49,102 bases of DNA, taken from the NCBI GenBank assembly GCA_031400935.1, contig JANNQV010000054.1:1-49102 (forward strand). The letters run 5' to 3'. The first letter of the stretch is position 1. The number at the start of each line of letters is the position of its first letter. Positions 46,266-49,102 of this stretch are shown one piece after another. A program made the position numbers and the translations under genes. A model generated the notes under the pieces. The model was not told where the DNA came from. It did not search any database and was given only the letters and a program-made list of their open reading frames with translations. Source of the DNA: Armatimonadota bacterium (GTDB taxonomy: Bacteria > Armatimonadota > Fimbriimonadia > Fimbriimonadales > Fimbriimonadaceae).

Positions 46266-46330
46266 ACGCCTTGATTCGATACGAATAGTTTGAATTCCTG
46301 TTGGAAATTGGTTTTTTTGGTTGTCCTTCG

Positions 46331-46380
46331 GTTCTCAGTTATCGGTTGTCTGTTGTTAGTTGTCAATTGATAGTTGTCAG
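46331..46380. repeat. Heptamer tandem repeats of the same family as 34921-35017
   Basis: GTTCTCA GTTATCG GTTGTCT GTTGTTA GTTGTCA ATTGATA GTTGTCA. Confidence 0.75.
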
Positions 46381-46456
46381 TATCCTGTACTCACAAATAT
46401 CCGATCTCCACTCTCGTCTCTCCGCTCTATCTCCGCCGGTAGTGTCCTAATTTGAT

Positions 46457-47083
46457 TTATGGTGGCGGATCGTACTCTGTAGGTCGTGTCGCCCAAACAG
46501 CACCGTCAGGCCCAAGGACTTGCTCTGGCATCACGCAAGCTTCGATATGATTCCAGTTCAATGTAATAGCCCGTGAACAGGCAGCAAAGTTCTTCTTGCT
46601 GGGTCGCTTGGTGGGTGGCGCGACCGTCACTAGTTCGATATTTGGGAATTCCGCCGAGCACATCCTGAACGCAGGCGACAAATCAGAGTCACTGCTAATC
46701 ACGTAAGCGACATCCATCCGCGCGTATCGCGCATCGTTGAGAAGATGGATTGCGAGGTTGACGTCGCTCTCTTTTTCCTCGTTCCCTGTGAAGGTCTTTT
46801 TGCAAAGCTTGCACCGCACAGGCTTCGCTTTGAATTCGCCCTTCACACATTCGCAACCCGTGGCCTCCCAGGCACGAAGTACTCGACGATGCCGAACCAT
46901 CGACGCAGGAAGGTGAGTTGCAAGAGCTGTGAAAACCTTGACGCTAACAAGCTGCTCGCCGGAGCGTGGGAGCAGCATCGTTGCTAGGTCCCAGTAAGAC
47001 ATCCATTTCAAATGCGGTCTTTGATGTCGCGCGATAGGATGATAGACATTGAATCCGTCAATATAAAAGGCGGCTCGTTTCAC
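46457..47083 (-). CDS. NYN (PIN-fold, LabA/DUF88-like) ribonuclease
   Basis: FYIDGFNVYH, EEKESDVNLA, ISSDSDL; inserted CKLC pair; GTG start 47083 after AAAGGTGG. Confidence 0.88.
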   Translation of the reverse strand: MKRAAFYIDGFNVYHPIARHQRPHLKWMSYWDLATMLLPRSGEQLVSVKVFTALATHLPASMVRHRRVLRAWEATGCECVKGEFKAKPVRCKLCKKTFTGNEEKESDVNLAIHLLNDARYARMDVAYVISSDSDLSPAFRMCSAEFPNIELVTVAPPTKRPSKKNFAACSRAITLNWNHIEACVMPEQVLGPDGAVWATRPTEYDPPP

Positions 47084-47097
47084 CGGGCCACCTTTTT

Positions 47098-47158
47098 TGA
47101 GAAAGAGCCCAGAGGTCTGCCCCTGGGGGGCCACAAGTAAACCTGTGGCGTGTTCTCA
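47098..47158 (-). ncRNA. Putative structured RNA leader upstream of the NYN gene
   Basis: Two 8-bp hairpins (47108-47127, 47130-47149) enclosed by TGAGAA/TTCTCA; both stem mismatches are G-U only on the minus strand. Confidence 0.5.
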
Positions 47159-47225: not shown

Positions 47226-48056
47226 TCAACATTGCACCGCATCCAGTAGGTCCGAAACGGTCCATGGTTGGTAAACGACACCCGCCGCAACCGCTGGAGT
47301 CGTCTTAATCGTTCCATGGATTCGGCAAAGATTGTAATGTGCGAAGTGAAGCGCGGTTGCCGCTTGCAGATTTTCGAGCTTCTTTGAGAAGCAAAGCGAG
47401 AGTCGCGTCAACCTTTTCATGTGCGTTCGCATAGTCAAATTAGAACGCTCTATGTAGCTTGTGCTGAAATACGCTTTTTGGTCGTGGTTGCCATGAATCG
47501 TCTTACGGTCAATGGCAGACACCCTTGGAGGGGCGTAGCGGCCTGGTCCAATCGGCTCTGCTTCGTACGACTTTACAACTTGTCCGAAATCCAGGTCGCC
47601 ATTGAATGCATACCAAGCGGCATCAATATATGGACCCCATGCATCGGCTGAAAGCTGAATTCGGTTTTCAAGGCGACTCGCTAAATCCTTCATGAATTCC
47701 TGAGTCGAAGCAATGTTTCGTTTGCCGATAAGAAAAGATGGGATTAGTTTGGTTGCCTCGTCAATCGCAACAAAGATGTAGAAGTCGCCCATTCGGGTCA
47801 CATCGTCTTCGCTGGTTAAGTGCCCTTGCTTCTTTTGAACGAAACTCCAAATCTCATCAACTTGAATTCGCTTGCAATCGAGCCCACGCATTTCCTCGTC
47901 CATGAGTTTCGCGCAACCTTCGCCGACTCTGACCATGTACCGCATGATCGAATCGCGGTGAACGTCGACGATTCTTTCGGTAGCTCGAATGCTCGTCCCA
48001 TCGACAAGACATTTGATGATCGCTTCCTGCTTTTCACGCTTTAGGATGTTACCCAT
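47226..48056 (-). CDS. IS1-family DDE transposase (HTH + catalytic domain, no N-terminal Zn finger)
   Basis: GTSIRATERI HTH; QVDEIWSFV, LSAD, STSYIER.NLT.R...RLTR..FSKK, TPAVAAG. Confidence 0.88.
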   Translation of the reverse strand: MGNILKREKQEAIIKCLVDGTSIRATERIVDVHRDSIMRYMVRVGEGCAKLMDEEMRGLDCKRIQVDEIWSFVQKKQGHLTSEDDVTRMGDFYIFVAIDEATKLIPSFLIGKRNIASTQEFMKDLASRLENRIQLSADAWGPYIDAAWYAFNGDLDFGQVVKSYEAEPIGPGRYAPPRVSAIDRKTIHGNHDQKAYFSTSYIERSNLTMRTHMKRLTRLSLCFSKKLENLQAATALHFAHYNLCRIHGTIKTTPAVAAGVVYQPWTVSDLLDAVQC

Positions 48057-48101: not shown

Positions 48102-48127
48102 TTGACACGATAAAATTGTGGTATTAT
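48102..48127 (+). promoter_or_regulatory. Probable sigma70-type promoter for the tRNA-like gene
   Basis: TTGACA at 48102-48107 and extended -10 TGgTATTAT at 48119-48127 (spacing is a short 14 nt). Confidence 0.5.
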
Positions 48128-48146
48128 TTCGTCAGTTCGGAAAAAC

Positions 48147-48242
48147 GGAGTGGGAGCCGTTCGCTGGTGCGATTAATGGGCTTTACATCCAAAGGCCGCG
48201 TGCTGATACCACGTAGGGGTTCAATTCCCACCCACTCCGCCA
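48147..48242 (+). tRNA. Non-canonical tRNA-Sec-like (allo-tRNA-type, 8/4) gene, anticodon UUA (ochre)
   Basis: Acceptor GGAGTGGG/CCCACTCC + G-CCA; D-arm TCGC-TGGT-GCGA; anticodon arm TGGG-CTTTACA-TCCA; long variable arm GCGTG/CACGT; T-arm GGG-TTCAATT-CCC. Confidence 0.75.
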
Positions 48243-48301
48243 GTTAATCCGAACTCAATTATACCATCGGTTCAAAATGGACCAAAATGGAGGTAGACCA
48301 A

Positions 48302-49102
48302 ATGGCAGATAATACAGAAACAATCGAGAATCAGGCGGATAAGAAAAAGAGGCACCGAAGTCCCCCATACCCTTCCGCGAGCCTCCCGGAGGCTGTCGGC
48401 TTCGCCAATACATACTATCAAGCGCAACGAAGAAATACCGTCTACCTTGAGGCCGCAATGAAGTCTCTAGGGTACAAGCCGGACAGTAGCGGCGGTTTCA
48501 GAGCTATTGCTGCAATGATTGCTTTTGGCTTGCTGGAGGATGAAGGTTCTGGCAAAACAAGAAAGGTGAAATTAAGCGATCTTGGGTATAAGTTGATGGT
48601 TCTACCAGACGGTGACCCTGACCGGATTCCACTATATCAGGAAGCCGCAAGAAAACCAACCATCTACACTGAGTTGCTAAAACAATGGGCAGATGGATTG
48701 CCCTCCGACGATGCGATTTCGAAGTACTTGATTCTGGAACGCAACTTCAACCCGGCTTCCGTTTCTCCGTTGCTAACTGATTTTCGTAGGACTTTAGAAT
48801 TCTCGAAGTTGACTTCTGCTGGTATTATATCAGAAGAGCTAGAAGACAACGGCGGGAAACCAGACGGCAGGAAAAACACCGGCCAAGATGGAAAACGTCA
48901 CTCAACTGGCGATGGAGAAACTATCATGACTTCATTGGTCATACCTATTCGTGAAGGAGTGGAGGCTGAATTCCGATTTCCTGCAAACTTGAATAAAGAC
49001 GAGTTCGGCGATATGAAAGACTATATCGACACTTTCCTAAAGGTTCAGGAACGAAAGATCAGTCGAACTCCCGCGCAAACAAACCCACAAGCAGAGGATT
49101 TA
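48302..49102 (+). CDS. Uncharacterised protein, possibly winged-helix; 3'-truncated by the window end
   Basis: GGAGGT SD then ATG 48302; 267 codons open to the end (MADNTETIENQADKKKRHRSPPYPSASLPEAV...AFGLLEDEG...); absent from the ORF track because it has no stop. Confidence 0.8.
   Translation, partial: MADNTETIENQADKKKRHRSPPYPSASLPEAVGFANTYYQAQRRNTVYLEAAMKSLGYKPDSSGGFRAIAAMIAFGLLEDEGSGKTRKVKLSDLGYKLMVLPDGDPDRIPLYQEAARKPTIYTELLKQWADGLPSDDAISKYLILERNFNPASVSPLLTDFRRTLEFSKLTSAGIISEELEDNGGKPDGRKNTGQDGKRHSTGDGETIMTSLVIPIREGVEAEFRFPANLNKDEFGDMKDYIDTFLKVQERKISRTPAQTNPQAEDL

Follow-up and report, generated by a model that had tools for sequence, protein, structure and literature searches.

The window analysed here, a 49,102-nt stretch of a contig (C54) from an Armatimonadota bacterium, contains a 96-nt gene for a 9/3-type allo-tRNA at positions 48147 to 48242 on the forward strand, assigned by the tRNA-Sec model, its fold and the alignment of its family. 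The acceptor stem pairs 48147-48155 with 48230-48238, the ninth pair being an A.A juxtaposition (A48155.A48230), and is joined by a D arm (48161-48172) with a UGGU loop and four clean pairs, an anticodon arm (48177-48191) with four standard pairs, a long variable arm of five pairs (48198-48214), and a T arm (48217-48229). The anticodon loop, CU-UUA-CA (48181-48187), is closed by a G.U pair and presents the ochre anticodon UUA (48183-48185) and C37 (48186). The gene ends in G-CCA, comprising G73 (48239) and an encoded CCA (48240-48242). Of these elements, the cloverleaf ending in G-CCA, the UGGU loop, the long variable arm, the anticodon, the 4-bp anticodon stem and C37 had been described in the initial annotation and are present in the sequence. 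A 13-nt inverted repeat with 85% complementarity, formed by a 5′ leader (48134-48146) and a 3′ trailer (48243-48255), brackets the gene exactly, as expected of a leader/trailer helix.

The tRNA gene is single-copy in the host assembly. ARAGORN reports no tRNA gene in the window, and the match to the Rfam tRNA-Sec model (RF01852; 38.0 bits, E 4.6e-5) does not reach the gathering score of 47. Both searches had been proposed in the initial annotation, along with the homologue covariation described below, which was borne out. The cloverleaf has a fold z score of −2.20, with 4 of 200 shuffles equally good, and a family model that includes this sequence scores the copy at 85 bits, within the family range. 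The segment is a real, if unusually built, tRNA gene and, since relatives in similar transposons keep its shape and loop, probably not debris.

The gene lies inside a mobile element, as had been proposed from the sequence. On the left, one copy of a 9-bp target-site duplication (46429-46437) adjoins the 18-bp terminal inverted repeat GGTAGTGTCCTAATTTGA (46438-46455). An NYN-domain (PIN-like) passenger gene occupies 46457-47134 on the reverse strand (Pfam PF01936, E 7.1e-6, over the cut-off; start codon uncertain), and an open frame of 276 amino acids for an IS1-like DDE transposase (47226-48056, reverse strand) is divergent from the tRNA. The transposase matches Pfam DDE_Tnp_IS1 (PF03400) over the cut-off (E 9.2e-10), its best NCBIfam match is transpos_IS1 (NF033558; E 2.7e-16, below the cut-off), and its acidic motifs were located. 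Downstream of the tRNA, ORF5 (48287-49102, forward strand) encodes a passenger protein with a distant DUF5343-like lead and no Pfam or NCBIfam match; its TAG end lies just inside contig C34. The end of the window is an 87-nt overlap with C34, the sole such overlap in the assembly, and across it the element measures 3,116 bp, with 18-bp terminal repeats (right near-copy at G000:C34:63418-63435) and a 9-bp direct repeat, the right copy of which adjoins the right terminal repeat. Just left of the element, window positions ~46300-46380 have weak matches on several other host contigs and are probably an intergenic repeat.

The NYN gene, the transposase, the tRNA and ORF5 are accompanied in the element by an ORF of ~100 amino acids, located 3′ of ORF5 in the first 380 bases of the reverse strand of C34. 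This small ORF is conserved (a relative copy is L030:3071-3379), belongs to no known family and marks many of these elements; the copy in the window's element has no ATG, GTG or TTG at the usual start. Its protein is predicted with confidence to adopt an alpha/beta fold (pLDDT 92), for which no Foldseek match was found at E<=0.001 and the best VIA match (Z 6.4, rmsd 3.0, 69 aligned) is to a common arrangement. An Atlas search with the small ORF returned unnamed clusters only.

Two promoter-like boxes face each other across the tRNA gene. An extended −10-like box on the forward strand (48117-48127), 19 nt 5′ of the gene, is the probable promoter of a tRNA/ORF5 transcript; near it, a generic promoter scan gives a neighbouring 9-of-12 site only. 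On the reverse strand, a consensus extended −10 box (48258-48266) lies 18 nt past G73, with 0 of 300 shuffles as good, and is also found in L071 and L103. Transcription from it would produce an RNA complementary to the tRNA over its full length and continuing into the transposase gene, and this RNA would serve as the transposase mRNA. The antisense side outscores the sense side in 16 of 21 members (3 reverse), compared with 21 of 46 host tRNAs (22 reverse), on a home-made weight matrix whose scores are inflated in several loci by overlap of the box with the stop codons of converging genes. Many members have no clear sense promoter, and in many of those that do not encode CCA a hairpin immediately precedes the gene.

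Related elements and their passengers

Both ends and a target duplication were located in 7 of the 15 loci or locus pairs tested (the window, L020, L071, L082, L135, L226 and L234), and the duplications in these seven elements are all 8 or 9 bp; in the other eight, most of which are cut short, no ends with a duplication were found. Its position between terminal repeats with target duplications marks the tRNA as a passenger carried by elements that have undergone transposition. IS1-family target duplications are 8-9 bp long, and the elements share with that family this duplication size, an IS1-like DDE transposase and short terminal inverted repeats. They differ from known IS1-family insertion sequences with passenger genes in that the transposase is single-frame and scores under the NCBIfam cut-off, the length is 2.2-4.8 kb and the passengers are variable, tRNA-like genes included. 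The passengers of the relatives comprise a Panacea antitoxin, IrrE/HTH, P63C and HNH proteins and others, a Pfam family being over or near its cut-off in 9 of 18 proteins.

The tRNA is present in just 1 of 40 transposase-anchored loci and in 6 of 17 small-ORF-anchored viral loci, one of these being the query's own. Near the 20 listed tRNA loci, many of them on short contigs, the small ORF is found at 14 and the transposase at 12. A plasmid collection contains five transposase records and no match to the small ORF or the tRNA, and ORF5, used as a metagenome anchor, gave 66 candidates, none of them confirmed. Other irregular tRNA-like genes (L241:6005-6179, L287:7545-7651, L122:979-1072, L022:4661-4734 and L188:3857-3948) lie within or next to elements that have this terminal repeat or transposase, so that tRNA-like passengers may be numerous in such elements.

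A deletion form of the element is visible in public contigs from two DNA runs of one study. In it, 47219 is fused to 48132 and 48211 to 48819, so that the transposase, the sense box and the 3′ third of the tRNA are lost, and the flank left of 47079 is different. Its depth, which does not measure copy number, is about twice that of the full form; each side of a joint spans 29 letters, and the two runs may derive from the source sample. This form hints that inactivated derivatives of the element exist, possibly as non-autonomous copies missing from the assembly. In the same two-run contigs, no variant is listed at pair 9 or base 37.

The tRNA family

The first relative, L020 from a Myxococcales MAG, came from a transposase search without bias from the RNA, and its tRNA has the same loop as the window copy. 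A metagenome pattern search with the anticodon left free returned at least 119 matches, and at least 20 of the matches listed belong to the family by acceptor pairing, 17 of them distinct; 99 of the 119 listed were rejected as unlike the family by acceptor pairing, among them L173, which has 9 of 9 acceptor pairs but scores just 26.9 bits. Three duplicates were dropped, and L054 and L047 are excluded from the 20-member counts. In L054 (2972-3066), other sequence takes the place of the 5′ acceptor strand and D arm, the 3′ two-thirds being intact. Further finds from viral sequences and genomes bring the family to at least 26 distinct members. It is sporadic, with one true copy per 401-genome sample: pattern searches of 401 genomes from the host's own phylum and 401 from that of L020 each returned the known copy, one non-family match and nothing else. 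A DNA search of 60 relatives gave nothing beyond short T-arm-type or chance matches, and model R1, applied to 19 transposase-bearing genomes, recovered the L020 copy and five matches with UCA anticodons. The Rfam tRNA-Sec gathering cut-off is passed by 1 of 14 relative loci (L121, 50.7).

The 21-row alignment of the family (A1) has 94.5% of cells paired, compared with 79.0% after shuffling (0 of 500 shuffles reach 94.5%) and 45-59% in slid controls, with two-sided changes at 14 of 22 structure pairs. Covariation is seen in the acceptor and D stems, with none of 500 shuffles as high in a control that takes no account of relatedness; the search pattern fixed the T stem and the inner anticodon pairs, which are invariant. 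At pair 9, both sides change in 12 of the 21 rows. The initial annotation had proposed an allo-tRNA of the 8/4 or 9/3 type, with an 8-bp acceptor stem and a T stem of 3 bp plus a G.A pair. Because pair 9 is complementary in 19 of the 20 listed members, this copy being the sole exception, the gene reads as a 9/3 fold, not 8/4, and the class assignment holds in its 9/3 form. In the 20 listed members, the acceptor branch has 9 + 3 pairs, of which this copy retains 11 of 12; the A.A at pair 9 probably makes it weaker still than the family. The variable arm has 5-7 pairs in 20 of 20 listed members. The D stem, capped by a tetraloop, has 4-5 clean pairs in most of them, its longest extension being broken in this copy, and the anticodon stem has four standard pairs, extended solely via A.A or A.G juxtapositions.

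The host assembly contains 47 ordinary tRNAs, its own tRNA-Sec among them. CCA is encoded in 45 of these, compared with 3 of the 20 listed family members. G1:C72, A3:U70 and G73, positions absent from every search pattern, are found in all 20 listed members and G2:C71 in 15, and the same acceptor ends (G1:C72, G2:C71, A3:U70 and G73) are shared by all four host tRNA-Ser. A3:U70 is a serine identity element. The serine identity proposed initially from the long variable arm and G73 is supported by this conservation and by the likeness to the host tRNA-Ser, which make the tRNA a candidate for charging with serine.

The anticodons of the 17 distinct members among the matches listed are UUA in eight, CUA in seven, and UUG and UCU in one each. 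UUA or CUA thus accounts for 15 of 17, with bases 35-36 hardly varying, and all 26 distinct members have a pyrimidine, U or C, at base 34; variation confined largely to the wobble base is the pattern that codon reading would be expected to leave. Three sister pairs differ by UUA/CUA, on a tree that is weakly resolved (2 of 17 branches strong). C37 was fixed in the main search pattern, which makes its conservation in that set circular, and it was not used; among the finds made independently of the loop (L020 and six small-ORF loci), YUA-C-A-U is present in 7 of 7. Base 39 is U in 24 of 26 distinct members and in 16 of the 17 where the pattern allowed U or C. It is kept opposite U, A and C at base 31 in L226, L234 and L225, base 31 being G, A, U or C overall, which points to sequence recognition and not to stem pairing. 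C37, U39 and the short anticodon stem are family traits and not decay. The earlier caveat, that C37 and the 4-bp stem might mark a decaying gene, does not stand on those grounds, yet this copy does have one private mismatch, at pair 9. The gene belongs to a conserved, transposon-borne 9/3 allo-tRNA subfamily with stop anticodons.

Several related genes depart from this pattern. The UCU member (L156:269-572, the same as L138) heads an array in which it is followed by a 7/5 tRNA with the loop CUUUAAA and another with CUCUAAA, so that its neighbours have ochre and amber anticodons (UUA and CUA). Two tandem 9/3 tRNA-like genes are found at L225:2855-3048 (minus strand), the upstream one with an unusual loop. 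The family model, although trained on C37 sequences, picked up at 48.8 bits a 9/3 tRNA-like gene with a UAU anticodon and A37 (L278:3784-3879, minus strand) in an element with the same terminal repeat.

A probable further helix of 2-3 bp encloses the D and anticodon arms; in this copy, 48156-48158 would pair with 48194-48196, adding −1.6 kcal/mol. Bases 10-11 have Watson-Crick partners just 3′ of the anticodon arm in 19 of the 20 listed members, and on the raw alignment pairing at these two positions reaches 83%. The telling members are the two with UC, which match their own partner in 2 of 2 and the linkers of the others in 2 of 18, and L121, in which both strands of the helix are absent; cross-member controls are uninformative for CC, GC and CG (6/7, 13/17 and 17/19), and a permutation p-value was discarded as circular, the partner window having been picked as the best match. 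L234 folds a longer form of the helix, and the neighbour of L225 folds a six-pair helix that encloses the D and anticodon arms.

Comparison with known tRNAs

The 8/4 and 9/3 allo-tRNAs, ochre ones included, were defined in Mukai 2017 (PMC5389517), where sheet 1 of the table has 10 ochre (UUA) rows. Similar to the published 9/3 type, the subfamily has a 12-bp branch split 9/3, a D tetraloop, a long variable arm, an ochre anticodon, a tRNA-Sec model match below the cut-off and G73, one of the two discriminators (G73 or U73) accepted in that definition (PMC5389517). The anticodon stem of 9/3 allo-tRNAs is described there as longer than canonical, whereas here four standard pairs are followed by A.A/A.G juxtapositions, and the D stem has 4-5 clean pairs in most members rather than the six described in PMC11231383. 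The loop CU-YUA-CA, C37, G31.U39, the longer linkers and the probable extra helix also set the subfamily apart. Published UUA rows have a purine at 37, and a text search of the Mukai 2017 table (PMC5389517) finds CTTTACA once, outside a loop, and CTCTACA nowhere; CUA, common here, occupies two rows of sheet 1, of another type. The linkers exceed those of the 9/3 rows examined in that table, and the extra helix may be new, although the "five-stem-junction structures" of Mukai 2017 (Figures 4A and S5) may be relevant both to the helix and to the link with transposons. Published examples of ochre 9/3 allo-tRNAs near transposons already exist (PMC5389517); the loop was not found in the table text searched. 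In the literature within reach, most subscription papers lying beyond it, no description was found of this subfamily or of tRNA passengers in IS1-like elements.

The allo-tRNA(UAU) group of Mukai 2017, linked to a transposon gene and toxin-antitoxin loci (PMC5389517), resembles the subfamily in its mobile context, its toxin-antitoxin-type neighbours and the doubt about translation, and L278 is a related 9/3 gene with a UAU anticodon. Those tRNAs are mostly 8/4, about 84 nt long, with an Ile anticodon and A37 (PMC5389517), compared with the stop anticodons seen here, and in the present family the RNA has been located between terminal repeats flanked by target duplications in seven elements. The tRNA-Sec family (RF01852) has in common with the subfamily the D tetraloop, long variable arm, G73 and a stop anticodon; it differs in a 13-bp rather than 12-bp branch (PMC11231383) and in UCA rather than UUA or CUA, the score here is below gathering, and the host has a separate tRNA-Sec. 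A pyrimidine at 37, linked to the non-proteinogenic tRNA-Gly of Staphylococcus aureus (PMC6103715), is shared with that tRNA. The S. aureus tRNA loses T-arm EF-Tu determinants (PMC9976931), whereas in 6 of 7 loop-independent members here the pair that appears to correspond to 51-63 is G-C.

Candidate functions

The reading favoured here, with a probability of roughly 0.4, is that the tRNA is a serine-charged weak suppressor of UAG and UAA, a passenger of an IS1-family transposon that is held down by antisense transcription. It would be transcribed from the box at 48117-48127, trimmed out of the leader/trailer helix, charged by host SerRS via the long variable arm, G1:C72, G2:C71, A3:U70 and G73, and delivered by EF-Tu. 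UAG and UAA would then be read inefficiently, decoding being weakened by C37, the G31.U39 closing pair and the four-pair stem, and the opposing transcript from 48258-48266 would keep the tRNA level down. The outcome would be mild host-wide serine readthrough, a latent stress or toxic activity among toxin-antitoxin-type passengers, and not dedicated recoding of one gene. A serine-inserting UAA suppressor had been suggested from the window alone; the family switches between UUA and CUA, and the codon that both would read is UAG. Consistent with suppression are the stem covariation, the invariant serine set common to the host tRNA-Ser, the encoded CCA and leader/trailer helix of this copy in a host where nearly all tRNAs encode CCA, and the UCU member arrayed with UUA and CUA tRNAs. 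A long variable arm and G73 are serine determinants (PMC9976931), and Ser is inserted by other 9/3 allo-tRNAs, which can be toxic to E. coli (PMC5389517).

Against suppression stand the pyrimidine at 37, where 47 of 47 host tRNAs have a purine and the tRNA-Gly precedent is non-proteinogenic (PMC6103715), the retention of U39 regardless of base 31, the scarcity of CCA and of clear sense promoters among relatives, many of which follow a hairpin, and the 2 of 17 distinct listed members with sense anticodons. U/C switching at base 34 could partly reflect transition bias, and six transposon-linked allo-tRNA(UAU) were inactive as suppressors in E. coli (PMC5389517). The search for a readthrough target found none: in-frame stops occur in 6 of 118 alignments, those among tRNA carriers being solely a TAG in the small ORF of L103 (1386-1589), a locus with a UUA member, and a near-terminal TAA in L143; no stop-codon avoidance is evident in element genes. 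C37 and U39, which decoding leaves unexplained, are accounted for by a close rival, tentative but nearly as likely and in line with the decoy role also raised in the initial annotation, in which a non-decoding and probably charged tRNA mimic offers its U-Y-UACAU loop as bait or target to a nuclease, toxin or another protein, for example a MazF-type RNase or an anticodon nuclease, and acts as decoy, antitoxin or sensor. MazF enzymes cut UACAU-type motifs (PMC10893535), the passengers include the Panacea antitoxin, IrrE/HTH and NYN proteins, the probable extra helix sets the RNA apart from the canonical core, and non-translational roles were proposed for transposon-linked allo-tRNAs (PMC5389517). 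Such a mimic would leave unexplained both the pyrimidine at base 34 in all 26 members and the invariant serine set. In addition, the loop reads UACAUC rather than the characterised UACAUA (PMC10893535), UACAU is little depleted in host frames (0.92, rank 144 of 1024), no partner gene is shared by every locus, the small ORF coming closest at 14 of the 20 listed, and no PemK/MazF match was found in the host genome (95.6% complete), one of the two genomes searched having one.

Facing −10 boxes, the near-perfect antisense box in the three CCA-bearing members of this layout (window, L071 and L103), the excess of antisense over sense scores, with the inflation from stop-codon overlap noted above, and the hairpin 5′ of many members would also suit a cis-regulatory device, in which overlapping sense and antisense transcripts control the transposase or passengers and the tRNA fold is a scaffold or processing signal with an incidental anticodon. 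That arrangement is quite unlikely: the transposase is antisense to the tRNA in nine of 12 loci and sense in three, the presence of the tRNA in 1 of 40 transposase-anchored loci implies that transposition does not need it, and the serine identity bases would need no conservation. It is, if anything, a shade less probable that the family is functional and this copy a dying pseudogene. Its private A.A at pair 9, the broken D-stem extension, the small ORF without a usual start and the deeper deletion form point that way, against which the identity bases, loop, CCA, both boxes, leader/trailer helix, open transposase and perfect target duplication are intact and the 85-bit score, from a model that includes this sequence, is within the family range. 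A change of the host's genetic code (stop reassignment, selenocysteine or pyrrolysine) is largely refuted. The best Rfam match is tRNA-Sec and the anticodons are stop-reading, but the host has its own tRNA-Sec and an intact RF1, uses all three stops on long frames (TAG 649, TGA 564, TAA 500), and the pattern, searched in 401 genomes of the phylum, turned up in this one alone apart from a single non-family match.

A broader proposal, which is unlikely as a whole, treats the subfamily as widespread transposon-encoded effector RNAs, stop-reading, with a nested helix, a fixed U-Y-UACAU loop and their own antisense transcript, in an RNA-based addiction or anti-phage module of which they would be the toxin or decoy; loss of the antisense RNA, or of a partner such as the small conserved protein, would release readthrough. 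If the tRNAs suppress, transposons carry a tuned means to alter host termination, and decoding tolerates C37; if they do not, they are tRNA decoys that have been conserved along with a defined loop motif. Allo-tRNAs serve genetic code expansion, and either way the subfamily, which is invisible to ARAGORN and mostly below the Rfam cut-off, offers new 9/3 scaffolds in natural amber and ochre versions. Its ties to complete transposons with defined ends make the role testable on a 2-3 kb element. With no ribosome-binding site evident by eye, the complement of the conserved loop (in the window, the opposite strand of 48181-48190) reads AUG-UAR, a start followed directly by a stop, and its variant in L103 reads GUG-UAA.
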